NCBI GenBank assembly: GCA_040221695.1
Contig: JAVKEA010000190.1
DNA from: Coleofasciculus sp. E2-BRE-01
GTDB lineage: Bacteria > Cyanobacteriota > Cyanobacteriia > Cyanobacteriales > Coleofasciculaceae
Reading direction: 5' to 3' (one strand)
DNA length: 24,000 nt
Numbering within the stretch: position 1 is the stretch's first letter; the number at the start of each line of letters is the position of its first letter. Below are positions 2,929-20,757 of this stretch, piece by piece. A program made the translations under genes and the position numbers. The notes beneath the pieces were generated by a model. That model worked only from the letters and a program-made list of their open reading frames with translations. It ran no database searches and was not told the DNA's origin.

Positions 2929-5487
2929 ATGAAGCGAACGAAATTACTGCCGTACTTATTGCTGAGCAACTCAGTTGGTGTCTTAGTGGCAACGTCAGCC
3001 TTAGCTGAGGTTACACCAATCAGTCAATCTCCAATAATAGAACGTTCTCATCTTAGTGAGATAGAGTTTCCCCTGACCCCCGTTAAAGGACGAGTTCAGC
3101 AACCTGAGTCAGGGAAATCAGCAGTCGTTGCCCAAGTCGATGGGAACCTTGTCCAAATAACGGGTGTACAGCTTAACCCAACAGAGATGGGGTTGGACAT
3201 CATATTAGAAACCTCAGAAGGAGTCGCGCTGCAAGCCGAAACCAGGAGTGAAGACAATACCTTAATTGCTGATATCCCTAATGCCGTGCTGCTACTTCCA
3301 GAGGGTGAGGCGTTTCGCCAAGACAATCCCGTTGAAGGCATTGCCTCAGTGATAGTAACACAGCAGGATGTCAACAGTATTCGGGTGACGGTGACGGGTA
3401 CAGAAACAATACCGACAGCCGAAGTAATGTCAAGTGCATCCGGATTAGTCTTCAGCCTGACAACTGCCCCGGATACCGCTGAAATGCCGCCTGATGCCCC
3501 AGAAGAAATTGAAATTGTGGTAACGGCTGAGCCAGAAACCGGATATCGCGTCCCTAGGGCGACAACGGGGACAAGAACAGACACCCCAATCCGCGACGTT
3601 CCCCAATCTATTCAAGTTATCCCCCAAGAAGTGATTGAAGACCGTCAAGTCACCCGTCTTAGCGAATTAGCTGATAACGTCAGTGGTGTACAACCGTCTG
3701 TCGGTTATGGTGGACTTCCTTCCAATCAAACCTTTATTCGCGGTTTTCGCTCCGGAGTAAACCTCCGCGATGGTTTTCGGGATTTCGGTTTTTTGTCTCC
3801 TCGTGATGTTAGTAACATTGAGCGAGTTGAGTTTCTCAGAGGTCCAGCATCGGTTCTTTATGGCAACCTTGAGCCAGGTGGAATTGTCAATACCGTAACC
3901 GAACAGCCCCTACCCTATCCCTTCTACGAAGTGAGCATGACGGTTGGCAATTATGATTTTTACCGCCCAACCATTGACCTGACAGGACCACTTACAGAAA
4001 ATAGAGAGCTGCTTTATCGCCTCAACGTCGCCTACGAAAATGCAGACAGTTACCGGGACTTCAATGAGAACGAAAGTATCTTTATTGCTCCCGTGCTAAC
4101 TTGGAACATTGGACCGCGTACCACTCTGACCACAGAAGTTGAGTATCAAAACTATAACTACGTTTTCGATCGTGGCTTTCGACCAGAACCGGAATTTCTG
4201 GAACTCCCTCGGAGCCGATTTTTAGGAGAACCCGATTTTAACGATGCTGAAGTTGACTCCTTCTTTGGTAGCTATAGCTTTCAACATGAGTTTAGTGACA
4301 ACTGGAAATTCCGCCAAGGGTTCAGCGCTATTATCGTCAACAATGATATCCGGGAAGTCAACCTTCGCCCCTTAGAGGATGATCGACGCACCCTGCCCCG
4401 TCGCGCTTCCATGTCCGATGAATCTCAGGAAAACTATACGCTACAAAACGAATTTATCGCTGAATTGCAGACAGGCTCTATCGGTCATCAAATTCTGTTC
4501 GGACTAGACCTGAGCCGCTATGAATTCACCTACGACTTTTTCGGAGCGCCTCTAGCTTCCATTGATATCTTCGATCCGGAGTATGGAGCAGAACCTGGGG
4601 ACTTTGAGCCAAGCTTTGCTGAAGAATACGGCTCTAACACCATTGCCTTTTACATGCAAGATTTGATTGAGGTGTTGCCTCAGTTAAAAATTCTAGTAGG
4701 GGGTCGCTTGGACTGGAGTGATATCTTCTACAGAAACCGTTTTACCGATGAATCCATCAATGATCTATCAGAGTTTGCCTTCTCACCGCGAGCTGGCATA
4801 GTGTATCAGCCAACTGACTCCACCTCCCTTTATTTCAGTTGGGCGAAGTCATTTAATCCCCAGTTTTTCAGTAGGAGTCGGACAGACGAGGCGTTTGAAC
4901 CCGAACGGGGCGAACAATTTGAAATTGGGGTGAAGCAAGAGTTTTTGGATGGCAGACTGGCAGCTAACTTGGCACTTTACGAAATCACCAAGCAAAATGT
5001 TCTAACGCCTGATCCAATTGATCCTATCTTCAGCATTCAGGCGGGAGAACAAACAAGTCGGGGGATTGAATTGGAAATCGTAGGTGAAATCTTACCGGGA
5101 TGGAATATTATCGCCACCTACGCTCACACTGATGCCTTTGTCAGTGAGGATAACACGATTCCAGAAGGCGATCGCTTGGTTGGTATCCCGCTCAATAGTG
5201 CGAGCCTCTGGACAACTTATGAAATTCAACAGGGTGGTTTGCAGGGTTTAGGGTTTGGTGTCGGCGTCTTCTTCGTCGGTGACAGGGAAGCCCGACTGCC
5301 TAATACAGGCTTGGAAATTCCATCCTATGTCAGAGCAGATGCTCGTCTTTCTTATCGACGAGACAATTGGCAAGCTGCCGTTAACTTCAAGAATCTTTTC
5401 AACACCGAATATTACGAAACCCAAGGATTCTTTCTCACTCCCCAAGCTCCTTTCACGATTTTGGGAACGATTGCGGTGGAGTTTTAA
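2929..5487 (+). CDS. TonB-dependent ferric-siderophore outer-membrane receptor (FhuE/FpvA-like) with N-terminal extension
   Basis: 852 aa. Signal peptide MKRTKLLPYLLLSNSVGVLVATSALA. A roughly 150-aa extra domain precedes the plug and looks AMIN-like, as in other cyanobacterial receptors. TonB-box-like EEIEIVVTAE. Plug motifs RDVPQSIQVIPQEVIEDRQ, FIRGF and RVEFLRGPASVLYG. Long beta-barrel ending in a terminal aromatic (TIAVEF). Confidence 0.9.
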   Translation: MKRTKLLPYLLLSNSVGVLVATSALAEVTPISQSPIIERSHLSEIEFPLTPVKGRVQQPESGKSAVVAQVDGNLVQITGVQLNPTEMGLDIILETSEGVALQAETRSEDNTLIADIPNAVLLLPEGEAFRQDNPVEGIASVIVTQQDVNSIRVTVTGTETIPTAEVMSSASGLVFSLTTAPDTAEMPPDAPEEIEIVVTAEPETGYRVPRATTGTRTDTPIRDVPQSIQVIPQEVIEDRQVTRLSELADNVSGVQPSVGYGGLPSNQTFIRGFRSGVNLRDGFRDFGFLSPRDVSNIERVEFLRGPASVLYGNLEPGGIVNTVTEQPLPYPFYEVSMTVGNYDFYRPTIDLTGPLTENRELLYRLNVAYENADSYRDFNENESIFIAPVLTWNIGPRTTLTTEVEYQNYNYVFDRGFRPEPEFLELPRSRFLGEPDFNDAEVDSFFGSYSFQHEFSDNWKFRQGFSAIIVNNDIREVNLRPLEDDRRTLPRRASMSDESQENYTLQNEFIAELQTGSIGHQILFGLDLSRYEFTYDFFGAPLASIDIFDPEYGAEPGDFEPSFAEEYGSNTIAFYMQDLIEVLPQLKILVGGRLDWSDIFYRNRFTDESINDLSEFAFSPRAGIVYQPTDSTSLYFSWAKSFNPQFFSRSRTDEAFEPERGEQFEIGVKQEFLDGRLAANLALYEITKQNVLTPDPIDPIFSIQAGEQTSRGIELEIVGEILPGWNIIATYAHTDAFVSEDNTIPEGDRLVGIPLNSASLWTTYEIQQGGLQGLGFGVGVFFVGDREARLPNTGLEIPSYVRADARLSYRRDNWQAAVNFKNLFNTEYYETQGFFLTPQAPFTILGTIAVEF

Positions 5488-5517
5488 GTATCTTTGAACG
5501 AAATAGTTGAGCGCAGT

Positions 5518-5547
5518 CCCCATCTAGAATCTTTGATTTAGATGGGG
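5518..5547 (+). terminator. Stem-loop downstream of the receptor gene (possible terminator or mRNA-stabilising hairpin)
   Basis: ccccatcta (5518-5526) pairs perfectly with tagatgggg (5539-5547) across a 12-nt loop, 31 nt after the stop codon. No U-tract follows. Confidence 0.35.
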
Positions 5548-5690
5548 TGCGTTCAAACGAATGGCTCTAAAAATCCATGCCGGTGAAAGTTGTCCTCTGC
5601 TTAAAACACAAGAGCGGGTTGAGCTAATTAGACAAACAATGGCTAAGGCTGATTAGATGTCTTGCGTTTATTCAGGAACAGAGAATAGCC

Positions 5691-7016
5691 ATGAACTCAC
5701 AGCATCGACCGAACAGCCTACACACATTTACTATCATTTGGATTGGGCAAGTCGCCTCAATCCTGGGTTCCCGAATGACGAACTTTGCCGTGATCATTTG
5801 GGCGTGGCAAATCACTGGCGAGGCAACACCCTTATCCTTACTCGCCTTTTTTACCCAAATCCCAATCCTCATTGCTGCTGCCTTCGCTGGAGTCATTATT
5901 GACCACTGGAATCGCAAGCTGATGATGATTGTCGGAGATGTCATGGCAGGACTGTCCACAGTTATTATTCTTGTGCTATTCCTAACTGGCAATCTGGCAA
6001 TTTGGCATCTCTATCTAACGGGTGCTGTCAATGGGTTGTTTGGCTACCTCCAGGAACTGGCGTTCTCGGCATCCCAAGCCCTAATTGTTCCTAAACAGCA
6101 TTACGTCAGAGTTGGTGCTATGGGTTCAATGAAGACCTTTGGCTCTGGTGTCCTCGCCCCAGCGCTGGCAGGCGTACTCTACTACATCATTGGTCTTTCC
6201 GGCATTTTGATCATTGACTTCATTACCTTCCTGATTGCCATCGGCACGCTAACCCTCGTAAAAATTCCTCAACCCAAACCAAGTGAAGTGAACCAAGCCA
6301 GCACTGGCAAACGTTGGCAGCAATTGACGTTGGGTTTCCGTTACCTGTTTAACCGTCCTAGTCTCATTGCTCTCCAACTCTTTGCCCTGAGTTATATCTT
6401 CGTTGATAGAGCATCTGAGGTTGTTGCACCGATGATTTTAGCTCGCAGTGGCAATAATACGGCGGTACTCGGTAGCGTCCAAGGAGCTGTTGGTCTTGGC
6501 GGTTTAGTGGGAGCAATTCTGCTAAGTCTTTGGGGAGGACCCAAGCGTCGCATCCAGGGTCTGTTAATCGGTAGAGCGTTAGTCTTTAGCGGTGAAATGT
6601 TCTTGGGTTTAGGGCGTTTGCCCTCTATTTGGATGGGAGCCAACTTTGGTGCGGGTTTATTTAAACCCCTAGCGAATAGCTGTGAAAGTGCCCTTTGGCT
6701 GTCTAAAGTGGAACCGAACGTGCAGGGACGAGTGTTTGCTGCCAGTTCTTTTCTCGAAGGAATCATCTCACCACTAGGGCTATTGATTGCTGGTCCCTTA
6801 GCCGACTATATTTTTGAGCCAGCGATGATGCCGGGAGGCAGTCTCGCTCCCATCTTGGGGAATGTGTTTGGTACAGGTGCAGGTAGTGGGATGGCACTTC
6901 AACTGACCCTCTTCTCGTTTATTGTCGTCCTCATCTGTCTGGGTAGTTATTCTGCCTTCCCAGCATTGCGGGATATAGATGATATTTTGCCCGACCATGA
7001 TGTCGAGGCGAAGTGA
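5691..7016 (+). CDS. MFS transporter, EntS/MFS_3-like (candidate siderophore exporter)
   Basis: 441 aa and highly hydrophobic, with about 12 predicted TM helices. The N-terminus FTIIWIGQVASILGSRMTNFAVIIWAW is typical of enterobactin-exporter-type MFS proteins. It lies between the receptor and acylase genes. Confidence 0.8.
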   Translation: MNSQHRPNSLHTFTIIWIGQVASILGSRMTNFAVIIWAWQITGEATPLSLLAFFTQIPILIAAAFAGVIIDHWNRKLMMIVGDVMAGLSTVIILVLFLTGNLAIWHLYLTGAVNGLFGYLQELAFSASQALIVPKQHYVRVGAMGSMKTFGSGVLAPALAGVLYYIIGLSGILIIDFITFLIAIGTLTLVKIPQPKPSEVNQASTGKRWQQLTLGFRYLFNRPSLIALQLFALSYIFVDRASEVVAPMILARSGNNTAVLGSVQGAVGLGGLVGAILLSLWGGPKRRIQGLLIGRALVFSGEMFLGLGRLPSIWMGANFGAGLFKPLANSCESALWLSKVEPNVQGRVFAASSFLEGIISPLGLLIAGPLADYIFEPAMMPGGSLAPILGNVFGTGAGSGMALQLTLFSFIVVLICLGSYSAFPALRDIDDILPDHDVEAK

Positions 7017-7036
7017 AGAATAAGCAATAGGAAATT

Positions 7037-9142
7037 ATGTCTGTACAATCACGATCAGATAGGGGAACATTTCGACCTGTGGCTGGGCAACAAAAGACCG
7101 AAATCCTTTGGGATACCTATGGTGTTCCCCATATTTATGGTAAAGATGTCCAGAGTCTTTTCCACGCTTTTGGTTGGGCGCAAATGCACAGCCATGGTAA
7201 CTTGCTCTTGCGCTTCTACGGTCAAGCCCGTGGACGAGCAGCTGAATACTGGGGAGAAAACTATGTAGAATCTGACCAGTGGGTGCGAACAATGGGTGTT
7301 CCTAGTCGCGCCCAGCAATGGTACGATGCACAAAATCCGACGTTTCGCAACTACATTGATGCCTTTGCTGCTGGGATTAACACCTATACTCAAAACCATG
7401 CTGAGTTAATTGACAATGAGGTTAAGGGGGTGCTGCCTGTCACAGGCGTAGATGTGCTAGCTCATCTCCATCGCTTGCTTAATTTCACCTTTATTGTTGA
7501 ACCCCAGACTGTTGCCAGTTTAAGGGAAGAGTGGGAAAGTCCTCAGGATACTTCAAAAGAATTCAACACGCAAAACATCACACCCCAGAAACCCTTAGGA
7601 TCTAACGGTTGGGCGATCGCACCTTCTCGTTCTGCCAGTGGCAATGCTATGCTGCTAGCCAATCCCCACCTCCCTTGGTCAAATTTATTTCTCTGGTATG
7701 AAGCTCAGTTCAATGCCCCAGGTATCGATACCTACGGCGCAACTTTGGTTGGTATCCCAGTCTTAACGATTGGTTTCAATGATAATTTGGGCTGGACTCA
7801 CACGGTCAACAAATATAATGGGTGGGATGCCTACGAGCTAACCTTAGCTGACGGGGGCTACCGCTTTGACGGTAAAATTCACGCCTTTCAAACCGAAACA
7901 CAAACGCTAAACGTTAGGCAGCCTGATGGGACTCTACAGCAAAAACCCTTGACTGTACAATGTTGCGTCCATGGTCCAGTTATCGCCCAGAAGGAGGGTA
8001 AAGCCCTTGCCTTACGGGTGGTTGGTCTTGACCAGCCAGGGGCATTGGAGCAATGGTGGAGGATGGGGCTTGCCAAAAACCTAACTGAATTTGAAGCGGC
8101 AATCAAGCCCTTGCAGATTCCCATGTTCACGGTGATCTATGCGGATCGAGAGGGGCATATCATGCACCTATTTAACGGTCAAGTGCCAGTGCGTTCACAG
8201 GGCGATTATGCCTACTGGTCAGGCATTATTCCTGGTGACACCTCGACTACCTTGTGGACTCAATTTCACCCCTACGGTGATCTGCCTCGCGTTCTCGATC
8301 CCCAAAGTGGTTGGTTACAGAATGCAAATGACCCCCCTTGGACAACAACGTTTCCAGCACCCCTTAAACCCGATGATTATCCCTCCTATATAGCGCCGCG
8401 AGGTCCGGTGGAGTTTCGGGCGCAACACTCGGCGAAAATGCTCAAGTCAGATGAATGGATTTCCTTTGAGAAAATGGTTGAGTACAAACACTCGACCCAC
8501 GTAGAACTAGCGGAACGTCTGTTAGACGATCTAATTACGGCGGCACGGCAGCAAAGTGGAGAGGTAGCAAAAAACGCGGCGGATGTATTGGAAAACTGGG
8601 ATCGTAAAACAGAATCCGATAGTCGTGGCGCCGTGCTGTTTGCATTCTGGAGTGAAGAAGTCGATTTCTCTAACTTGTTTGCTAGTCCCTGGAATGAGCA
8701 AGAGCCATTAACTACACCCAATGGTCTTGCCGATCCGGTTAATGCCGTGACAGCCTTGGAAGCCGCTGCTCAAAGGGTTATGGCAACCTATAGAACACTG
8801 GACGTACCTTGGGGAGACGTTTTTCGGCTATGCTCTGGTAATTTAGACTTACCAGCCAATGGAGGTGAGGTTGGCATTTTCCGCAACCTCTGGTTTAGTC
8901 CTTTAGAAGACGGGCGTTTTGAAGCCATTGGTGGGGATTCCTATGTTGCCGCGATCGAGTTTTCTAATCCAGTCCGGGCGATGGCACTTACCAGTTATGG
9001 GAATGCCACTCAACCCAACTCACCCCATGTTGGCGATCAGCTAGAGCTGTTTGCCAAGAAACAGTTGCGACCGATTTGGCGATCGCGCCAGGAAATAGAA
9101 GCTCACTTGGCTACTCGCGAGGTCTTGACTGATGTGGAATAA
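7037..9142 (+). CDS. Penicillin-acylase-family Ntn hydrolase (PvdQ / acyl-homoserine-lactone acylase-like)
   Basis: 701 aa. Alpha-subunit start ILWDTYGVPHIYGKD. Autoprocessing site and nucleophile G-SNGWAIAPSRSASGNAMLLANPHLPW (Ser codon at 7601-7603). NANDPPW motif. An in-frame TAG at 7028-7030 prevents any N-terminal extension. Confidence 0.85.
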   Translation: MSVQSRSDRGTFRPVAGQQKTEILWDTYGVPHIYGKDVQSLFHAFGWAQMHSHGNLLLRFYGQARGRAAEYWGENYVESDQWVRTMGVPSRAQQWYDAQNPTFRNYIDAFAAGINTYTQNHAELIDNEVKGVLPVTGVDVLAHLHRLLNFTFIVEPQTVASLREEWESPQDTSKEFNTQNITPQKPLGSNGWAIAPSRSASGNAMLLANPHLPWSNLFLWYEAQFNAPGIDTYGATLVGIPVLTIGFNDNLGWTHTVNKYNGWDAYELTLADGGYRFDGKIHAFQTETQTLNVRQPDGTLQQKPLTVQCCVHGPVIAQKEGKALALRVVGLDQPGALEQWWRMGLAKNLTEFEAAIKPLQIPMFTVIYADREGHIMHLFNGQVPVRSQGDYAYWSGIIPGDTSTTLWTQFHPYGDLPRVLDPQSGWLQNANDPPWTTTFPAPLKPDDYPSYIAPRGPVEFRAQHSAKMLKSDEWISFEKMVEYKHSTHVELAERLLDDLITAARQQSGEVAKNAADVLENWDRKTESDSRGAVLFAFWSEEVDFSNLFASPWNEQEPLTTPNGLADPVNAVTALEAAAQRVMATYRTLDVPWGDVFRLCSGNLDLPANGGEVGIFRNLWFSPLEDGRFEAIGGDSYVAAIEFSNPVRAMALTSYGNATQPNSPHVGDQLELFAKKQLRPIWRSRQEIEAHLATREVLTDVE

Positions 9143-9197: not shown

Positions 9198-9600
9198 ATG
9201 GATTACCTCGTTGACCCTGGGGTTACCTATCCTAAACTTAATCCCCAGGCAAACTTACGTTTGTTTTGTTTTCCCTACGCCGGAGGTGCTGCTCGGATAT
9301 TTCGGACGTGGAGTGATAGCTGTGCTAGAGAATGCCGAACTGATGCAGTTTATTCTGCCTATCCTGCGATCGGATTTTGCGGTACTTGAAACCTATGTTT
9401 ACACCCCTAAGTCACCCCTGAATTGTCCGATTTCCGCGTTTGGGGGTTCGGATGATCCAGAAGCGACTTGGGATGATTTGGAAGGATGGCGGATTCAGGC
9501 TAGGGCTGCATTCTCATTGCGTATGTTGCCTGGAGATCACTTCTTTTTGCATTCAGCCGAGAGGTTGCTGTTGCCAATTCTTGCCGAGAATTGTCATTGA
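9198..9600 (+). pseudogene. Type II thioesterase remnant with an internal, frame-shifting deletion of the catalytic core
   Basis: The frame starting at 9198 gives a TEII N-terminus, LRLFCFPYAGGAARIFRTWSD. From about 9317 the next frame gives a TEII C-terminus, VLENAELMQFILPILRSDFAVLETYVY...CPISAFGGSDDP...LPGDHFFL. The roughly 110 aa that normally carry the GxSxG serine are absent, and the two halves are out of frame. Confidence 0.7.
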
Positions 9601-9618: not shown

Positions 9619-10020
9619 TTACTGTCTCTGAGCAGCGATCGCTAATTTGGTTCCCTCAATTTGACGCAACCGATCCATCACACTCACCACCCGACCATGA
9701 TCAACTTTTTCATCAGCATTGACAATGACAAGGGATTCACTATTCGGCACAACTAAAGCGCGAACGGCTTCTTCAAGCGCCTCTAATTCAATCGGCTGGC
9801 GATTCAGGGCAATTTTTCCATCGGGCTGAATCGTAACCGTAATTTCAGTACTCGGCTGATTTTGGGCAGTTGTAGCATTCGGTAAATTCACCGACAACCC
9901 TTCTGAACGGGTCAAGTATAGCGTCGAAATAATGAAAAATGCCAAAATCGAGAAAATCACATCGATCATCGGCACGATGTTAATTTCTCCTGGCTTCTCT
10001 GACTCATCGGGAAGCCGCAT
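9619..10020 (-). CDS. exbD: ExbD/TolR-family biopolymer transport protein
   Basis: MRLPDESEKPGEINIVPMIDVIFSILAFFIIST, followed by a periplasmic domain. The ATG at 10020 is preferred over 10041 because AAGGAG lies 8 nt upstream of it. Either start overlaps the end of exbB. Confidence 0.85.
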   Translation of the reverse strand: MRLPDESEKPGEINIVPMIDVIFSILAFFIISTLYLTRSEGLSVNLPNATTAQNQPSTEITVTIQPDGKIALNRQPIELEALEEAVRALVVPNSESLVIVNADEKVDHGRVVSVMDRLRQIEGTKLAIAAQRQ

Positions 10021-10654
10021 AAACCTCTCTCCTTTGCTCATATTGACGACGATAAAGCAGTTCTAACTGACCGCCATATTCCTGAATCAACGCCAGTTGT
10101 CGCTGATAAAAGCTCCGGAAAATATTGGAGAAAAAGAGGGTGAAAATTGCCACAACCAACCCCATGACGGTTGAAACCAAAGCTTCGGAAATTCCCCCCG
10201 TGACTCCCGTCGTGCGGGTTCCGCCAACATCACCAATATTCAGGGAAGAAAACGCTGTTATCAAGCCCAAAATCGTTCCCAAAAGACCGAGGAGAGGAGA
10301 AATACCAACAATCGTATCAAACACGGTATTAAATCGCTTCAACGTTGGCAATTCTGCCTGAGCTGCACTCTCTAAAGCCAGACGGAATTCCTCCGGGTTG
10401 GGGTTGTCAAGCTCTAACGCTTCGAGAAAAATCTTGGCAATCGGCAAATCAGCATTCTGCTGTAGATAGTTGATCGCCACGTCTGGCTTTTCTCGGTAAA
10501 GCTTCAGAACGTCTCTCACAACTCGGCGTTGCCGACGAGTGACCCGAAACCAAAAAAACAATCGCTCTACAATCAGGGTGACTGCCGCCAGGGAAAATAG
10601 GAGTAGGGGCCAAGCGACGATTCCGCCTGACTGGAAAAATGGAATAATGGGCAT
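10004..10654 (-). CDS. exbB: ExbB (MotA/TolQ/ExbB proton-channel family)
   Basis: 216 aa with three TM segments. Contains the conserved LLGLLGTILGLI and GGISEALVSTVMGLVVAI regions. Confidence 0.9.
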   Translation of the reverse strand: MPIIPFFQSGGIVAWPLLLFSLAAVTLIVERLFFWFRVTRRQRRVVRDVLKLYREKPDVAINYLQQNADLPIAKIFLEALELDNPNPEEFRLALESAAQAELPTLKRFNTVFDTIVGISPLLGLLGTILGLITAFSSLNIGDVGGTRTTGVTGGISEALVSTVMGLVVAIFTLFFSNIFRSFYQRQLALIQEYGGQLELLYRRQYEQRREVYAASR

Positions 10655-10720: not shown

Positions 10721-10735
10721 TGATAATTATTTTCA
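10721..10735. promoter_or_regulatory. Candidate Fur box in the exbB/tonB divergent intergenic region
   Basis: TGATAAT-T-ATTTTCA differs at one position from the 7-1-7 palindrome TGATAATnATTATCA. It lies 67 nt upstream of the exbB start codon. A weaker GAAAATAACTATCAAAA is at 10941-10957. Confidence 0.45.
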
Positions 10736-11102
10736 ATAGATGTATTCCTAAATCGGTTTCCTTGTCAAGGTGTTGAGCGAAATATTTTTCGTTACTCAAG
10801 AGTCTGCTAGGACGTTTAGCGATCGCTTATCCAGCCAAAACCACGGATAATCGGGCGTTTAGCGACTCTTGGGGGGACTAAGTTCGGAACTCTTCCTACT
10901 TGACAGGAATAGTGAATTGGTGTAGTTAAGCCAATTTGTTGAAAATAACTATCAAAACAATTTTGTGGATATTCGTGACTAGGTTTGTCATGTTATACTT
11001 GCCAAGTTCATTTATTGTTTCACCGTTAATGCAACTTATATGCAATAATCTGGAGTGGTTGAGACGATAGGCGCTTGAGTAATCAGGAAAGGTGCGTAGC
11101 GT

Positions 11103-12863
11103 ATGAGCATATCGAGCTTCTGTATAGAGCAGCACAAAAAAGAACAAGAGGCTCTCAAAAAGTTTCTCATCTACAGCTTTGCTGGGAGTGCGGTGCTGCA
11201 TATAGTGCTAGCCCTTGGCATAAGCTGGGCTTGGGAAACAAGACCAGAACTTGCCGAAGACCCCATTGAAATCATACTTGTGGAGGAACCTGAAGTACCT
11301 AAACCAGAAGAACAACCTCTAAAAGAGACTCCAAAGCCAAAAGCAAAGACAGTTGAAACCCTAACTCCACCGCAACCGACCAAAACGCAGATACCAGAGC
11401 CAATTAAACCGCAGCAACGGGCTGACGCTTTACCTCAAAAACCCGTCCAGCAACCCGTACCTGCTCTACCAGCAACACCTCAAAAACCCGTAACGCCACC
11501 TGCACCCACCTCAGTAGAGCCACCCACTGAACCGACAAGGGAACGCAGCCCCGTTGTTACACCTCCCTCAGAACCCGTTCGTGAACCCTCAGAACCTGCT
11601 CTATCACCACCTGAACCCGTAGCCATTAATAATTCAGCACCGCCACGCCCAGAAAACAATTCCCAACCACTTCAGACTGACTCAGACGTAGGAAAACTTA
11701 GAGAACGCTTAAGCGAACCAACGACGACACAATCAACAGCACCACCCAATGATGACGCCTCTGAAGCCAACCCCACATCCCCAGGTGCAGTGGCAACCAA
11801 TCCCTCTGCACCCCCACGACCCAGAGGAGTTTCTGGAATACTTTCTGATGCGTCAAAGATTACCGAAAACATCAGAGATCGCTTAGGCGGTAGCTTTTCA
11901 GAATCGACAGGTTCTCCAAGTGCCGAAGACTCAATGGCTGACCCTGGCTTGCCAGGAGCAGTGGCGACCAATCCCTCAGCCCCTACACGACCCAGCGGTA
12001 CTTCCCAACCGCTTTCAGGTTCTTCTTCGGGTTCCCAACCATTCAGAGAAAGCTTGGGCGGTGGCAGTTCTGGCGAACGAGCTTCATCAAGTGAGGGCGA
12101 CTCAATAGCTAATCCTGGCTTGCCAGGAGCAGTGGCGACCAATACCTCAGCTCCTACGCGACCAAAACCAGGGGGTAACGCAGGGGGGGATCGAACTGAA
12201 GATGGAGGCGGGGGATTGCGTTGTATTAGGGGGTGCAATCCCGATTATCCATCCTCTTTGGAAGGTGAGGAAGGGAGAGTCCCTGTCAATGTTGAGCTGG
12301 ATAGAAACGGTAATGTAGTGAATGCGCGAGCGAGTGGAGGTACTCGCAGTAGACAATTTGTGCAAGAAGCGGAGGCAGCCACCAGGAGGATGAAGTTTAC
12401 AAAACCTGAAGGTAGAGACCGTGTTACCGTCACAGTAAATATTAACTTTACACAACCAGGCTCTGAGTTTGATCGCCAAGCTCGCGAACGTCGAGAACAG
12501 AATGAGCGCGAACGCCAGCAGAGAGAACAGGAGCGTCAGGCGCAGCTCGAACAGGAACGCCAAGAACGGGAACGTCAGGCGCAGCTTGAACAGGAACGCA
12601 AAGAACAAGAACGCCAAGAGCAACTCGAACGCGAACGTCAAGAACAGCTCGAACGCGAACGTCAAGAACAAGAACGTCAAGAACAACTTGAACGCGAACG
12701 CCAAGAACAAGAACGTCAAGAACAACTTGAACGCGAACGCCAAGAACAAGAACGTCAAGAACAACTTGAACGCGAACGCCAAGAACAAGAACGTCAAGAA
12801 CAACTCGAACGCGAACGCCAAGAACAGGTGGAAGAAGTACCCCCTCCCGAACCTACAGAGTAA
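11103..12863 (+). CDS. tonB: TonB-family energy transducer with atypical repeat block and C-terminal charged tail
   Basis: 586 aa. N-terminal anchor FLIYSFAGSAVLHIVLALGISWAW contains the SxxxH motif. A Pro/Glu/Lys-rich spacer follows, then 3 repeats of about 57 aa. TonB C-terminal domain: DYPSSLEGEEGRVPVNVELDRNGNVVNARASGG...RRMKFTKP...VTVTVNINF. About 130 aa of E/R/Q-rich sequence then follow that domain. Confidence 0.85.
   Translation: MSISSFCIEQHKKEQEALKKFLIYSFAGSAVLHIVLALGISWAWETRPELAEDPIEIILVEEPEVPKPEEQPLKETPKPKAKTVETLTPPQPTKTQIPEPIKPQQRADALPQKPVQQPVPALPATPQKPVTPPAPTSVEPPTEPTRERSPVVTPPSEPVREPSEPALSPPEPVAINNSAPPRPENNSQPLQTDSDVGKLRERLSEPTTTQSTAPPNDDASEANPTSPGAVATNPSAPPRPRGVSGILSDASKITENIRDRLGGSFSESTGSPSAEDSMADPGLPGAVATNPSAPTRPSGTSQPLSGSSSGSQPFRESLGGGSSGERASSSEGDSIANPGLPGAVATNTSAPTRPKPGGNAGGDRTEDGGGGLRCIRGCNPDYPSSLEGEEGRVPVNVELDRNGNVVNARASGGTRSRQFVQEAEAATRRMKFTKPEGRDRVTVTVNINFTQPGSEFDRQARERREQNERERQQREQERQAQLEQERQERERQAQLEQERKEQERQEQLERERQEQLERERQEQERQEQLERERQEQERQEQLERERQEQERQEQLERERQEQERQEQLERERQEQVEEVPPPEPTE
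11766..12165 (+). repeat. In-frame 171-bp (57-aa) repeats inside tonB, two full copies plus one partial
   Basis: Copies start at 11766, 11937 and 12108. Each opens with A(N/D)P(T/G)(S/L)PGAVATN(P/T)SAP(P/T)RP and ends with S-rich ...LGG.S....S.E(D/G)DS(M/I). Confidence 0.7.
12651..12827 (+). repeat. Near-perfect 39-bp tandem repeat inside tonB, 4 full copies plus a partial
   Basis: Unit gaacgcgaacgYcaagaacaagaacgtcaagaacaactY encodes ERERQEQERQEQL. Copies start at 12651, 12690, 12729, 12768 and 12807. More degenerate E/R/Q copies extend back to about 12469. Confidence 0.9.
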
Positions 12864-12953
12864 GACTGTAACCCAATGCCAGATGCAATCTCTAAAAATA
12901 ACTCAACAATTAGCCCCATCTATTTCAATTTCAATAAAGGAGGTATTTGTCTA

Positions 12954-14015
12954 ATGCTTCGTACAATCGGACGATTCGGAATAACGTTACTTATTGCCTC
13001 AAGCGTAGATATTGCCAGCCATGTTATCAATCCCTCGATCGCAGTAGCAGGTGTTGTAACCTTACCCGATGGGGGTCGCTGTGAAGGGGCAATGAGCAAC
13101 GGTAACCTCAACGGTGAAGTCGTCTGTGAATACGCGAATGGCGATCGCTATGAAGGAAACTTTGTCGATGGTAACAAGAAAGGTCAAGGCACCTACACCT
13201 TTGCTGATGGCGGTCGTTATGAAGGTGAGTTTAGCAACGACCAACCCAATGGCAAAGGTGTTCGGGTGTACGAAAATGGCGATCGCTACGAAGGGGAGTT
13301 TAAGGACGGTCAGCCTAACGGTACGGGAACCTACATTAGCGCCGATGGCGGTCGCTATGAGGGACAGTTTACGGATGGCAATCCCAGCGGTACAGGAGCC
13401 TTTATTTTAGCCAATGGCGATCGCTGTGAAGGCGAAATTCAAGACGCTAACCTCAATGGTATGGGGGTGTGCGACTATGCTAATGGCGATCGCTATGAAG
13501 GTGAACTGAGTGATGGTAAGGCGAACGGTCAAGGAGTCTACACCTTCTCTGAGGGGGGGCGCTACGAAGGAACGTTTAGCAATGGTCAGTTCAGTGGCAA
13601 AGGGGTTCGGGACTATCCCAATGGCAATCGCTACGAAGGGGAATTTAGTAATGGCAAACCCGAGGGTCAAGGCGTGTACGTCTTCGCTAATGGAAACCGC
13701 TACGAAGGTCAATTCAGTAACGGTAAATTTAACGGCGAAGGTGTTTTCACCGACGCCAATGGTAATCGTTACGAAGGACAGTTTAGTAACGGTAAGTTCA
13801 ACGGCACTGGAATTTATACGTTTGCTAATGGCGATCGCTGCGAAGGACAGTTCAGTGAGGGTCAGTTAAACGGCAAAGCTGTCTGTAACTATGCCAGTGG
13901 GGATAGCTTTGAAGGAGAATTCCTCAATGGACAAAGGCAGGGAGAAGGTGTCTATATTTTCGCTGACGGAACCCGTGTGGAGGGAAATTGGGAAAATGGG
14001 GAGATTCAAAATTAG
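12954..14015 (+). CDS. Secreted MORN-repeat protein (14 x 23-aa repeats)
   Basis: The ATG at 12954 is preceded by AAGGAGG, and the track start at 12876 adds 26 implausible residues. Signal-like N-terminus MLRTIGRFGITLLIASSVDIASHVINPSIAVAG. Then 14 repeats of G(D/G/N)RYEG.F..G...G.G.Y.F. Confidence 0.8.
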   Translation: MLRTIGRFGITLLIASSVDIASHVINPSIAVAGVVTLPDGGRCEGAMSNGNLNGEVVCEYANGDRYEGNFVDGNKKGQGTYTFADGGRYEGEFSNDQPNGKGVRVYENGDRYEGEFKDGQPNGTGTYISADGGRYEGQFTDGNPSGTGAFILANGDRCEGEIQDANLNGMGVCDYANGDRYEGELSDGKANGQGVYTFSEGGRYEGTFSNGQFSGKGVRDYPNGNRYEGEFSNGKPEGQGVYVFANGNRYEGQFSNGKFNGEGVFTDANGNRYEGQFSNGKFNGTGIYTFANGDRCEGQFSEGQLNGKAVCNYASGDSFEGEFLNGQRQGEGVYIFADGTRVEGNWENGEIQN

Positions 14016-14096: not shown

Positions 14097-15131
14097 TTGG
14101 TAAGCAAGAGTGCTACGGCAAGAGAAACGAGTAGGGGGCGATCGCGCCTTTTACTCCCCGTGGGTTTGTCTCTGAGTCTGTTGATTCTGCTCGTCAGCTT
14201 GGTGGCAAGCATTACCTATGGTGCCGCCGATATTTCCTTCGATACTGTCTATGCCGCTTTAACCAACTTTGATGGCTCTACCGATCACCTGATTATCCGC
14301 ACAGTCAGATTGCCGCGATCGCTGATTGCCATGCTAGTGGGTGCTGCCCTTGGGGTGGCAGGTGCCCTGATGCAGGGATTAACTCGCAACCCTTTAGCTT
14401 CGCCGGGAATCCTGGGAGTTAATGCGGGTGCGGCAATGGCAGTCGTCATCGCTGTTTTCCTCTTCGGCTCATCTTCCCTGAGTGTCTATGCTTGGTGTGC
14501 CTTTGGGGGGGCAGGTGTTACGGCAATCACCGTCTATTTGCTCGGATCTCTGGGTCGAGGGGGACTGACTCCACTCAACCTGACGATTGCGGGTGCGGCA
14601 TTGACTGCCTTACTGTCCTCACTCACCACTGCCATCCTCATCCTTAGCCAACAAACCCTGGATGAAATCCGCTTCTGGTTAGCTGGATCGGTGGCGGGTC
14701 GGGATTTCACGTTGTTCTTACAAGTGCTGCCTTACATCGGCATTGGATTAGCGATCGCGTTTGCCTTAGGGAAACAAATGACCACCCTAACTCTTGGTGA
14801 CGATGTGGCTAAAAGCTTGGGTCAACAAACCCTATGGGTGAAACTAACCGCCGCCGTGAGTGTGGTTTTGCTGGCAGGGAGCGCTGTCGCGGCAGCTGGT
14901 CCGATTGGATTTATTGGTCTGGTTGTTCCCCACATTGTCCGCTTTTTAGTGGGCGTTGATTATCGCTGGATTCTGCCTTATTCTGCCATTTTTGGTGCCA
15001 TCCTACTCCTGGTCGCTGATATCACTGCCAGGGTGTTGATTAGTCCTCAAGAACTGCCCGTGGGAGTCATGACTGCTCTAGTGGGCGCTCCGTTCTTCAT
15101 TTATCTGGCGCGGTTCAAGGTGAAACGGTGA
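14097..15131 (+). CDS. FecCD-family iron-siderophore ABC transporter permease
   Basis: 344 aa and polytopic. Motifs [43 protein letters not shown] and [15 protein letters not shown]. Confidence 0.9.
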
Positions 15132-16174
15132 GAAAAAACTGGCTAGTTATTCGTCCTCGACTGTTGCCTATATCGTTCCGTATAGAACGGCGCGTACCAA
15201 CCGTACTACTCGTATTGGTTTTGGTGACTCTCGCGGCGATCGTGATCAATGTGGGGCAAGGGGAATATCCCATTCCACCATTGGCTGTTTTAAAAACGAT
15301 TGTGGGGTTGCCGACGGCTAACCCCGACTATGCCTTTATTGTGAATGTGCTGCGGTTGCCCAGAACGTTAGTCGCCTTTGGGGTAGGAGTAGGATTAGCC
15401 ATCTCTGGGACGATTCTGCAAGGACTGACACGCAATCCCTTAGCCGATCCCGGCATCATTGGCGTGAATGCGGGTGCGAGTTTAGCGGCTGTCAGTTTAA
15501 TCATTTTATTTCCAGATGTGCCGCTGTTTGCCCTACCTTTGTCTGCCTTTGCTGGAGCGTTGGTTGTTGCCATCTTTATCTACCTTCTGGCTTGGGATCA
15601 GGGCAGTTCTCCCATCCGGTTAATTCTCGTCGGTGTCGGGATAGCCGCTATCCTAGGGGCTTTGACGAATTTAATGGTCACATTGGGGGAAATTAATAGT
15701 GTCAGTCAGGCATTGGTTTGGCTGGCGGGAAGTGTCTACGGACGGGGTTGGCAGCATGTCGGGGCATTATTCCCTTGGCTGGCGGTGTTTGTACCCCTGT
15801 CGTTGGCGCTTTCGATGCCACTGAATGCCCTCTCACTGGGAGATGACCTTGCCAGAGGACTGGGGGCGAGAGTGGAGTGGCAGCGGGGTTTGTTATTGCT
15901 CATGAGTGCGGCAATGGCGGGTGCGGCTGTGGCTGTGGCGGGTACGGTTGGCTTTGTGGGATTGATGGCACCGCACTTGGGGCGTCAGTTGGTTGGACCC
16001 AATCACGAAGGGTTAATGCCAACAGCAGCGCTGATGGGTGGACTAATTATTGTGCTGGCTGATTGGTTGGCACGGGTACTCTTTGCACCCATCGAGTTGC
16101 CCTGTGGTGCGATTACCGCCGCTGTCGGTGCCCCTTATTTTCTCTATCTGCTGGTTCGCAACCGCAAGCGATGA
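15128..16174 (+). CDS. FecCD-family iron-siderophore ABC transporter permease (second subunit)
   Basis: 348 aa. Its GTG start overlaps the upstream stop (GTGA). Motifs [43 protein letters not shown] and [15 protein letters not shown]. Confidence 0.9.
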
Positions 16175-16213: not shown

Positions 16214-16320
16214 GAGGGGGAGCGGGGGAAGCTGGGGAAGCTGGGGGAGCTGGGGGAGCTGGGGAAGCTGGGGAAGCTGGGGAAGCTGGGGAAGCTGGGG
16301 AAGCTGGGGAAGCTGGGGGA
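16214..16320 (+). repeat. Nonamer tandem array (AGCTGGGGA/G), about 11 copies
   Basis: Units are phased from 16221 to 16319. The array lies in the spacer between the second permease gene and the ATPase gene. The G-rich strand is the sense strand. Confidence 0.9.
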
Positions 16321-16379
16321 GGTGAACTCAAAACTCTACCTTACCTATTGCCCATGAAACACCGAGCGAAGCCGAGGTG

Positions 16380-16470
16380 TTGCCCATTGCCTATTGCCCA
16401 TTACCCATTACCCATTGCCCATTGCCTATTGCCCATTGCCTATTGCCTATTGCCTATTCCCTGTTCCCTT
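16380..16470 (+). repeat. Heptamer tandem array (TTGCCCA/TTGCCTA/TTACCCA), about 13 copies; STRR-type
   Basis: Direct reading shows 13 consecutive 7-nt units, ending 38 nt before the ATPase start codon. Confidence 0.9.
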
Positions 16471-16507: not shown

Positions 16508-17293
16508 ATGAGCTTATTGTCAACTCGCCGACTTTCTCTGGCGTATGATGGAACACCTGTGATCACGAACCTCGACCTGGCAATTCCTGTCGGGAAGATT
16601 ACGGCTTTGGTTGGACCCAACGGCTGTGGCAAATCAACCCTGTTGCGGGGACTGGCGAGGTTGCTCAAGCCTTGTGCAGGTACAGTTTACTTAGACGGGA
16701 CTGATATTTTCAAGCGCTCAACCAAAGCTGTGGCGAAGCGATTGGGAATTCTCCCCCAAAGTCCAGTAGCTCCGGAGGGGTTGACGGTTCGAGATTTGGT
16801 CGCTCAGGGTCGTTACCCTTACCATAACTGGTTGCAGCAATGGTCAAAAGATGATGAAATCCTGGTGGAGAAGGCGCTTTTCATTACAGGGATAACCCAA
16901 CTGGCAGACCGAGTATTGGACACGCTTTCGGGTGGACAACGACAACGAGCTTGGATTGCTATGGCACTAGCTCAGGATACAGAGATTCTGCTATTGGATG
17001 AACCGACAACGTTTTTAGACTTGGCGCATCAAGTCGAGGTATTGGATTTGTTGTATGAGTTGAACCAGAGCGAAGGGCGGACGATTGTTATGGTACTGCA
17101 CGACCTGAATCAGGCGTGTCGCTACGCCAATCATCTGGTTGCCGTGCGCCAGGGTCAAGTTTATACAAAAGGAGAGCCAATGCAAGTTGTGACGGAGGCG
17201 ATGGTGCGTGAAGTGTTTGGTTTGGAGTGTCGGATTGTGCCTGACCCGGTAGCGGGGACGCCAATGTGTGTACCAATGGGTCGTTGGGTGTAA
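16508..17293 (+). CDS. Iron-siderophore ABC transporter ATP-binding protein (FecE/FhuC-like)
   Basis: 261 aa. Walker [10 protein letters not shown], signature LSGGQRQR, Walker [10 protein letters not shown]-loop VLHDLN. Confidence 0.9.
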
Positions 17294-19659: not shown

Positions 19660-20124
19660 CTAAAGTGACCGTTTCAGGCGAATCAGTTGATTCTGAATTT
19701 GCCGTTGTAAATCGGGGTCGAATTGAGCTGTATTCGTAATAGCGTTAAATTGAGCCATGTTGAACCCCTGGCTTTCGCCAATTTCTTTGGCTTTATTGCA
19801 GTAGTTGACGGCAATTCCTTGGACATCAGAGGGGAGTTCTTTGAGAGAATCGGGTTGGGTACAGGTAATATTAGGAATCTGATCTTGGTTTATCTGTTGC
19901 TGAATTTCGCTGAAGGCAGTTTGACGGCTATTTTCGATCGCCAGAAGTGCCTTGGCGTAATTCCTGATTTCCTCTTCGGTGATAGTTTCGGCTGATAATG
20001 GGGAGATAGACGGACTTGCCTCTGGAGTGGAGTTAGAGGAACATCCAGAGAGAATGAGGGCGAGTGCGGTTACACAACTCGTCCAGGAAATCCTATAGGT
20101 TCGCGATCGCGCCTGTATGGGCAT
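19660..20124 (-). CDS. DUF4168-like lipoprotein
   Basis: The ATG at 20124 is preferred over the TTG at 20151. Lipobox LILSGC. Body EEEIRNYAKALLAIENSRQTAFSEIQ...ITCTQP...NYCNKA. Confidence 0.65.
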   Translation of the reverse strand: MPIQARSRTYRISWTSCVTALALILSGCSSNSTPEASPSISPLSAETITEEEIRNYAKALLAIENSRQTAFSEIQQQINQDQIPNITCTQPDSLKELPSDVQGIAVNYCNKAKEIGESQGFNMAQFNAITNTAQFDPDLQRQIQNQLIRLKRSL

Positions 20125-20268
20125 GGAATCCGATTCAAGTAGCAACGGCAAAGTGTAGCTCTATTTTGACAGGTTTTGACCGTTTGGATCTCAGGAACTT
20201 AGTAAAACTCAGGGTTCTTGCTTATATCTAGAGTTCCTTACCGAGCGTTATGATACCACAATAGGGGC

Positions 20269-20757
20269 TTATCGTTGGCTGGATTCTTGCTGTCTTTGTA
20301 ATGCATCTTGAATCCGCTGTCGTAAATTACCATCTTTTTCCGCCAGACGTGTAATTTGATTGAATCGGGAGGGGGTTAAATAATTATTCACCAGCGCTAA
20401 AGCTTGGTTACAATAAGTATTGGCAATTTTTCGCGCCTCCTGAGACGGCAGTTGATTGATGGTTTCTGAGCGATGACACTGGATATCAGGAATGTTGCCA
20501 TTTACGATTTTTTTAATTTCGTTATAGGCAACTTGGCGCAAGGGTTCCATGGCTAAAACTGCTCTAGCATAGTTGGTAACTTCCGCCTCGGTAACCGCTT
20601 GTTGAGCATAGACAGCACGGCTGAAGTCCAAACTTAGAGACTGTCGCGAAAGTTCGGGAATGAACCCAGACAGTAAACCTAAGCTGGTTAGTGCAGCTAC
20701 AATAAGTGGACGAGAGAAACGAGGCACATGAGGGTGATTACAGTAGGACGTGATCAT
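20269..20757 (-). CDS. DUF4168-like secreted protein (paralogue of the preceding gene)
   Basis: 162 aa with a signal-like N-terminus. EAEVTNYARAVLAMEPLRQVAYNEIKK...IQCHRS...TYCNQA is collinear with 19660-20124. Confidence 0.65.
   Translation of the reverse strand: MITSYCNHPHVPRFSRPLIVAALTSLGLLSGFIPELSRQSLSLDFSRAVYAQQAVTEAEVTNYARAVLAMEPLRQVAYNEIKKIVNGNIPDIQCHRSETINQLPSQEARKIANTYCNQALALVNNYLTPSRFNQITRLAEKDGNLRQRIQDALQRQQESSQR

Follow-up and report, generated by a model that had tools for sequence, protein, structure and literature searches.

In a 24,000-nucleotide (nt) stretch of the genome of the cyanobacterium Coleofasciculus sp. E2-BRE-01 (GenBank assembly GCA_040221695.1, contig JAVKEA010000190.1; hereafter the window), the gene directly after tonB encodes a protein built of MORN repeats. 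A comparable arrangement has been described in Synechocystis PCC 6803, where tonB (slr1484) is followed by slr1485 (PMC4195498, PMC8634477). There, the unit TU37 (slr1484–slr1485–slr1488) is induced 19-fold by iron stress (PMC4195498), with slr1485 and slr1484 among the most strongly iron-induced genes (PMC3516471). One bidirectional promoter, which contains four Fur boxes, serves the tonB and exbB1D1 genes, and the authors of that study remarked that joint transcription of tonB and the 'periplasmic protein Slr1485' is a hint of mechanisms not yet described (PMC8634477). In addition, slr1485 is a target of the activator IutR1 in chromatin immunoprecipitation sequencing and reverse-transcription quantitative PCR (PMC11221513), and Slr1485 accumulates under salt stress, having first been described as a salt-induced periplasmic protein (PMC6584798), an annotation quoted in PMC4195498 and PMC11221513.

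Slr1485 is probably the ortholog of the window MORN protein. Its likeness lies in being encoded directly after tonB, in an iron-induced unit, with divergent exbB1–exbD1 genes, and in being reported as periplasmic (PMC4195498, PMC8634477), the difference being that slr1485 is followed by an ATP-binding cassette (ABC) exporter-type gene, slr1488, and not by FecCD permease genes. The old label of Slr1485, 'putative phosphatidylinositol phosphate kinase' ('PIP kinase'), fits a MORN-only protein, because the window protein itself matches a PIP5K chain (9e5c_3d) through its MORN repeats. Slr1485 was not among the matches listed in protein searches with the full-length protein, its N-terminal part and ortholog profiles, in which long multi-repeat MORN proteins dominate; likewise, among the matches listed in a phmmer search of 50% representatives with the MORN protein, there were long MORN proteins only, and a cluster look-up gave Undibacterium and unnamed proteins. 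Literature searches linking MORN repeats to TonB, or MORN to the cyanobacterial periplasm, found nothing relevant. An earlier description of the window, which we call the sequence-only reading, held that no part in TonB systems is known for MORN proteins; this holds as far as function is concerned, but the slr1484–slr1485–slr1488 unit is published as iron-induced, and Slr1485 as periplasmic.

By analogy, the closest functional precedent for the MORN protein appears to be TtpD2 of Vibrio vulnificus, a TPR-repeat protein that is iron-regulated, essential for TonB2 function and required for TonB2-dependent siderophore uptake, and that has been proposed to act via protein-protein contacts (PMC6957404). 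Like the MORN protein, TtpD2 consists of repeats only and is encoded directly behind its tonB gene, tonB2, by the last gene of the operon (PMC6957404). The two differ in that TtpD2 is made of alpha-helical TPR motifs rather than MORN beta-hairpins, with no homology between them, and the Vibrio TonB2 system also needs TtpB and TtpC, both of which are absent at the window locus. A TtpD-type identity of the MORN protein was rejected, as it has no TPR match; the likeness is one of operon position and repeat-only build.

In repeat family and fold, the MORN protein joins the eukaryotic MORN1 of Toxoplasma, Trypanosoma and Plasmodium, the junctophilins, MORN4 and the radial-spoke proteins RSP1/RSP10. 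The solved eukaryotic examples are all cytoplasmic, whereas the window protein is predicted to be exported, carries three conserved cysteine pairs within its array and is tied to a bacterial Ton system. A second analogy comes from the Tol-Pal system, in which TolB, a soluble periplasmic protein, is encoded directly after the TonB-like transducer TolA in an operon that also carries the ExbB/ExbD paralogs TolQ and TolR. TolB binds the C-terminal domain of TolA; its fold is a beta-propeller, with the TolA-binding strand at the N-terminus, and is unrelated to MORN arrays, as is its sequence.

Conservation of the tonB–MORN gene pair

In 69 of 70 informative cyanobacterial loci, tonB adjoins the MORN gene upstream on the same strand. 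The underlying locus scan used one genome per species, with the best 80 loci kept, and returned 79 loci, of which 73 look cyanobacterial by gene content and cover about 20 genera. Full-length orthologs of the MORN protein, with 51–97% identity, were found in about 70 species-level cyanobacterial genomes, those from Coleofasciculus being 96–97% identical to the window protein and others coming from Microcoleus, Symploca, Symplocastrum, Kastovskya, Argonema, Microseira, Phormidium, Lyngbya, Tychonema, Laspinema, Oscillatoria, Hormoscilla, Desertifilum, Lusitaniella, Pleurocapsa and Cyanobacterium, among others. Directly upstream of the MORN gene and on the same strand, 66 of 71 open reading frames (ORFs) contain Pfam TonB_C; four of the five that do not belong to non-cyanobacterial loci (L069, L077–L079), and the fifth is probably L044, which has a frameshifted tonB. 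The count of 69 of 70 was obtained by repeating the comparison with lineage-matched TonB_C queries on loci that have upstream DNA. Its lone exception, L073 (1842–2969), comes from a Hormoscilla metagenome-assembled genome (MAG) and has no adjacent tonB in 1.8 kb of upstream DNA; it may be a second, unlinked copy, because other Hormoscilla loci (L062, L068) carry the pair. Whether the pairing extends beyond one strain had been left as a check by the sequence-only reading, and these counts answer it in the affirmative. Two contigs labelled as Actinomycetota and Sphingobacterium MAGs (L064, L071) carry a complete cyanobacterial-type exbBD–tonB–MORN cluster, that of L071 also with FecCD genes, at 60–65% identity, and both are probably mis-binned cyanobacterial contigs.

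The genes around the pair vary. In most loci surveyed exbB–exbD diverge from tonB–MORN, while the order on one strand is tonB–MORN–exbB–exbD in Argonema and exbB–exbD–tonB–MORN in Desertifilum. Downstream of the MORN gene, FecCD permeases are present in only 13 loci, all of the Coleofasciculaceae type; in Microcoleus, PvdQ-like acylase, MFS, PepSY and receptor genes come next, and in Pleurocapsa an MFS gene. The TonB protein varies as well. Although it ends 4–5 residues past TonB_C in Microcoleus, Laspinema, Oscillatoria, Tychonema and Hormoscilla, each of these genera keeps the pair; a tail beyond TonB_C is found in Pleurocapsa, Lusitaniella, Desertifilum and Cyanobacterium, and its length ranges from 88 to 166 amino acids (aa) among Coleofasciculus-type genomes. 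Because the downstream genes vary and the TonB tail is often absent, the conserved unit is tonB plus the MORN gene within the Ton gene set.

These comparisons bear on two ideas put forward in the sequence-only reading. The first was that the MORN protein might be a periplasmic adaptor or scaffold for this uptake route, which we take to mean a substrate shuttle that would stand in for a missing binding protein of the neighbouring FecCD ABC importer. In the window, the permease genes do begin 81 nt after the MORN gene, and the earlier remark that no substrate-binding-protein gene is visible proved correct: no Peripla_BP_2 gene was found in the 24 kb, none of the larger ORFs matching a binding-protein family and the unscanned small ones being far too short. 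Binding-protein genes, however, are often unlinked from their permease genes. Moreover, FecCD genes follow the pair in the 13 loci only, an acylase gene, an MFS gene or exbB taking their place elsewhere, and in Laspinema and Lusitaniella (loci L039 and L029) canonical Peripla_BP_2 proteins are encoded right beside tonB–MORN. The predicted fold, an open beta-sheet rod, is not that of a two-lobed binding protein. Synteny has largely refuted the adaptor idea, which we now regard as highly improbable. The second idea, that the MORN protein is a partner specific to tailed TonB, is contradicted by the persistence of the pair in the five genera with tailless TonB. Gene content across genomes thus suggests that the MORN protein partners the Ton energising system, rather than an ABC importer or the TonB tail.

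On account of this synteny, of the MORN–TonB_C fusions considered below and of solved complexes in which MORN arrays serve to bind proteins, we propose, at what we judge to be an even chance, that the MORN protein is an accessory protein-protein scaffold of the ExbB–ExbD–TonB energy-transducing system.

The MORN protein and its predicted export and fold

The features of the MORN gene and its product, in window coordinates, are as follows.

12939–12943, plus strand: Shine–Dalgarno sequence GGAGG, with the ATG at 12954 10 nt downstream (read from the sequence)
12954–14015, plus strand: coding sequence of the MORN-repeat protein, 353 aa and stop codon (translation, Pfam, orthologs, AlphaFold2, Foldseek)
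12954–13049, plus strand: predicted Sec signal peptide, aa 1–32, with cleavage after A30-V31-A32 (motif features, ortholog alignment)
13050–14012, plus strand: mature protein, with a capping strand (VVTLPDGG) at the N-terminus, then 13 full MORN repeats and half of another (repeat register, composition, 28 beta strands in the model)
13080–13127, plus strand: cysteine pair 1 in repeat 1, C43 (codon 13080–13082) and C58 (codon 13125–13127)
13425–13472, plus strand: cysteine pair 2 in repeat 6, C158 and C173
13839–13886, plus strand: cysteine pair 3 in repeat 12, C296 and C311

The 353-aa reading frame reported earlier was recovered by translation, and its sole Pfam match is MORN (PF02493), with 277.4 bits against a cutoff of 22.5 and E = 7.9e-86, well outside anything that chance would give. 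In an alignment of 25 orthologs from different genera, the N-termini align to the same start as the ATG at 12954. The R-[YC]-E-G anchors of the protein recur with an exact period of 23 residues from residue 42 onwards, giving 13 full 23-aa repeats and a 13-residue C-terminal half repeat; the 23-aa periodicity given in the sequence-only reading is therefore exact, while its count of 14 consecutive repeats was slightly generous. The repeats show the MORN motif as defined in PMC7725318, that is, 23 residues with GxG, a glycine at position 10 and YEGE[WF]; a cyanobacterial protein was already named in the founding MORN paper, as quoted in that article. By profile, motif and fold, the protein is a member of the MORN-repeat family. 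A five-repeat super-repeat within the array is weakly supported (identity of 0.53 at a shift of five repeats, against a background of about 0.49). When the PDB was searched with the sequence, only eukaryotic MORN proteins were matched, with E-values down to 5e-42. Two other identities were tried and rejected: a siderophore substrate-binding protein (PF01497, FhuD/FecB type), for which there was no profile match and the model is all-beta and not two-lobed, and a TonB-family protein, as there is no TonB_C match and, on reading the alignment, no S-x3-H motif at the N-terminus.

The signal-like N-terminus noted earlier is a conserved signal peptide with an invariant alanine at position −1. It has a basic n-region (R3, R7), a hydrophobic core, an N-P helix breaker and an AxA motif, and A32, at position −1 of the A/T/V-x-A motif, is invariant in the 25 orthologs; export by Sec and cleavage by signal peptidase I are predicted on these grounds, and residues 1–29 are disordered in the AlphaFold2 model. 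Export by Tat was ruled out, since the twin-arginine motif is not conserved among the 25 orthologs, as was a lipoprotein identity, since there is no lipobox. The MORN protein is therefore, as far as these sequence features tell, very probably exported to the periplasm, where it would be soluble. The mature protein would be about 34 kDa and acidic, with an isoelectric point (pI) of 4.4 calculated from composition, and its N-terminus is conserved among orthologs as x-V-[VI]-T-L-P-D-G-G-R-C-E-G.

All six cysteines of the protein are invariant in the 25 orthologs. The pairs lie in repeats 1, 6 and 12, as the sequence-only reading had placed them, but the spacing within each pair is 15 residues (i, i+15) rather than the 16 given there. 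In the register of Sajko et al., the first cysteine of each pair stands at the tyrosine of YEGEW (position 13) and the second at position 5 of the next repeat, the leucine of LxY. In YEGEW and LxY, the side chains of conserved aromatic residues neighbour the second glycine of GxG (Sajko et al., PMC7725318), so the paired thiols should be in contact, and going by this published repeat register the three pairs probably form disulfides in the exported protein.

An AlphaFold2 model, computed from the window protein and its database matches, has a mean predicted local distance difference test score of 89.7 and contains 28 beta strands, all in beta-hairpins, with an N-terminal capping strand at residues 31–36. 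The best Foldseek matches of the model are the MORN1 crystal structures 6t69, 6t4r and 6t4d, with target-normalised template modelling scores of 0.84–0.88 and a root-mean-square deviation of about 2 Å across about 195 residues. Among the PDB sequence and Foldseek matches, no solved bacterial MORN protein was found. The model suggests that the protein is one continuous acidic beta-sheet rod consisting of MORN beta-hairpins only, with a length that we estimate at roughly 13 nm, taking 28 strands at about 4.8 Å each. In solved complexes MORN arrays bind proteins, namely MORN4 with Myo3a (6jle) and junctophilin-2 with a CaV1.1 peptide (7rxq).

A rod of this kind could also serve as a tether or spacer: attached to lipid, peptidoglycan or the outer membrane, it would determine the periplasmic geometry around the Ton complex while not binding TonB itself. 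Membrane binding is the role historically given to MORN repeats, and phosphatidylethanolamine co-purifies with TbMORN1 (PMC7725318); the predicted rod is rigid, about 13 nm long by the above estimate and cysteine-stapled, and cyanobacterial TonB linkers of several hundred residues suggest a long distance to span. MORN1, however, did not bind lipid vesicles, general lipid binding by MORN repeats has been questioned (PMC7725318), and the MORN protein has neither a recognisable wall-binding domain nor a lipobox. We consider the tether quite improbable, and return below to the MORN protein as a scaffold of the Ton system.

The Coleofasciculus neighbourhood and its regulatory signals

Around the MORN gene, the window contains the following features; strands are given where they were recorded.

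2929–5487: TonB-dependent siderophore receptor with N-terminal AMIN domain
5691–7016: EntS-like MFS gene
7037–9142: PvdQ-like Ntn acylase gene
9211–9600: truncated thioesterase ORF, 129 aa (Pfam Thioesterase, profile positions 134–222 of 226 only)
9619–10041, minus strand: exbD (Pfam ExbD)
10004–10654, minus strand: exbB, divergent from tonB (Pfam MotA_ExbB)
10722–10740: Fur-box-like match in the exbB–tonB divergent promoter region, 14/19 to GATAATGATAATCATTATC, the best of all 24 kb
11103–12863, plus strand: tonB, 586 aa (Pfam TonB_C, TIGR01352, alignment)
12864–12953, plus strand: tonB–MORN spacer, 90 nt, not conserved beyond the Shine–Dalgarno sequence
14097–15131, plus strand: FecCD permease gene 1 (Pfam)
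15128–16174, plus strand: FecCD permease gene 2 (Pfam)
16508–17293, plus strand: ABC ATPase gene (Pfam)

The window neighbourhood is an iron and siderophore island, and Pfam matches place the MORN gene between tonB and the FecCD permease genes on the same strand, in agreement with the sequence-only reading. TonB has an N-terminal transmembrane helix with conserved S29 and H33, a Pro-rich linker of about 320 aa and TonB_C at aa 381–449, followed by a tail of 137 aa (12453–12863) that is rich in E, R and Q and that contains, at 12633–12826, a tandem array of five 39-nt repeats that are 97% identical.

The acylase–MFS–receptor set of the window (2929–9142) recurs downstream of tonB–MORN in Microcoleus, and the set suggests that an acylated siderophore is taken up or recycled. 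Next to it, the ORF at 9211–9600 is probably, judging from its partial profile match, what is left of a type II thioesterase that belonged to a siderophore cluster of non-ribosomal peptide synthetase or polyketide synthase type. On the other side of the MORN gene, 333 nt separate the second FecCD gene from the ABC ATPase gene, and this gap contains two short tandem arrays, at 16216–16323 and 16380–16468, in which GGGGAAGCT and a TTGCC[CT]A heptamer are repeated about 12 times each. In L004 and L005 a mere 20 nt or so lie between these two genes, so the arrays were inserted or expanded recently within the operon. At 19660–20757 on the minus strand, a pair of neighbouring paralogous DUF4168 genes adjoins ureE; they are unrelated to the MORN finding.

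With regard to transcription, on the plus strand neither the 90-nt tonB–MORN spacer nor the 81-nt MORN–fecC spacer contains a site resembling a terminator or a promoter, and no conserved RNA element or internal promoter was found in the tonB–MORN spacer of orthologous loci. In addition to the match in the exbB–tonB promoter region, a second Fur-box-like match (13/19) lies at 2863–2881, just upstream of the receptor start at 2929. Enrichment of Fur-box-like sites in orthologous exbB–tonB spacers is weak and suggestive. As read from the window, the sequence is compatible with iron-regulated co-transcription of tonB and the MORN gene.

A proposed role of the MORN protein in the Ton system

Polypeptides that carry both MORN repeats and TonB_C were found in two kinds of protein, one from Burkholderiaceae and one from Microcoleus. 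The Burkholderiaceae protein (P0029) combines a signal peptide with about 11 MORN repeats and TonB_C; the fusion at L081 (5641–7431, from a Burkholderiaceae MAG), an independent protein of 596 aa with an extra C-terminal region, adjoins a two-component system and is not near exbBD. In the Microcoleus chimera (P0040/P0008), the MORN signal peptide and repeats 1–8 are joined in frame to a TonB Gly/Ser linker and TonB_C, both halves deriving from the local MORN protein and the local TonB. In Microcoleus sp. MON1_C1 this chimera lies between tonB and an intact MORN gene (L080, 10001–11008), and related chimeras are present in other assemblies (P0008, P0081).

The fusions and the linkage bear on another explanation, namely that the MORN protein is a general stress protein of the periplasm or envelope, for instance with a structural, cation-buffering or wall-associated role, that shares the tonB promoter and has no part in energy transduction. 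The salt induction of Slr1485 (PMC6584798) and the very acidic mature protein (pI 4.4) would suit such a role, and bacterial MORN arrays are also fused to PG_binding_1, SH3_3, SLH, caspase-like and trypsin-like peptidase domains, which suggests a generic extracytoplasmic module. However, co-regulation alone fails to explain the adjacency to tonB in 69 of 70 loci across three gene orders and changing neighbours, and it leaves the recurrence of MORN–TonB_C fusions unexplained. We consider the stress-protein explanation unlikely.

If the MORN protein is instead a scaffold of the Ton system, it would be made together with TonB from the iron-regulated tonB promoter under iron limitation, as the Synechocystis literature indicates, exported by Sec, cut after Ala32, as conservation suggests, and oxidised in the periplasm to a triple-stapled rod. 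The rod might then attach to TonB's long periplasmic part or to its C-terminal domain, or set where these stand with respect to the thick wall of cyanobacteria and the receptors in the outer membrane. A stronger form of this proposal, which we put forward only tentatively, is that the rod is an obligatory fourth Ton subunit, a disulfide-stapled periplasmic strut that physically engages TonB and guides or anchors it across the thick wall to the receptors. By analogy with the TonB box or the N-terminus of TolB, the conserved V-[VI]-T-L-P strand of such a strut might be donated to the TonB C-terminal domain.

Several points weigh against a role in the Ton system. Adjacency proves co-inheritance and probable co-expression of the two genes, and not physical interaction; any contact of the MORN protein with TonB, ExbD, the receptors or the wall, as well as a requirement for it in uptake, is what we infer from the evidence above. 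The literature searched contains no knockout phenotype or assigned function for the tonB-linked MORN protein, and the orthology of Slr1485 is drawn from its position after tonB and from the old 'PIP kinase' and 'periplasmic' annotations. Its salt induction fits a more general envelope role. The Fur-box signal of the window is weak, and the Microcoleus chimera is probably a product of tandem duplication and recombination and may be an accident; as a tolerated arrangement, it is weak evidence for function.

The MORN repeat family itself and the tonB–slr1485 gene pair of the Synechocystis transcriptomes were already known. What the present comparison adds is the near-universal linkage of tonB and the MORN gene across cyanobacterial orders and gene orders, the recognition of the partner as an exported, cysteine-stapled MORN rod, as predicted here, and the exclusion of the ABC-importer and TonB-tail interpretations. 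TonB–ExbB–ExbD is usually described as a system of three proteins, to which a conserved, co-transcribed periplasmic rod would add a component, and debate persists on how TonB reaches outer-membrane receptors across the periplasm, especially in cyanobacteria, where walls are thick and the linkers of TonB very long. Many bacteria have MORN repeats, though no bacterial MORN protein with an assigned function was found in the literature searched, and the tonB–MORN pair gives a concrete phenotype to look for in one. Synechocystis, with the presumed ortholog slr1485 and existing expression data, is a tractable model for this. Should the MORN protein prove dispensable for uptake, it would still mark a reliable iron- and salt-responsive periplasmic protein; should it prove to be a strut that engages TonB, a bacterial MORN protein would for the first time have an assigned function.

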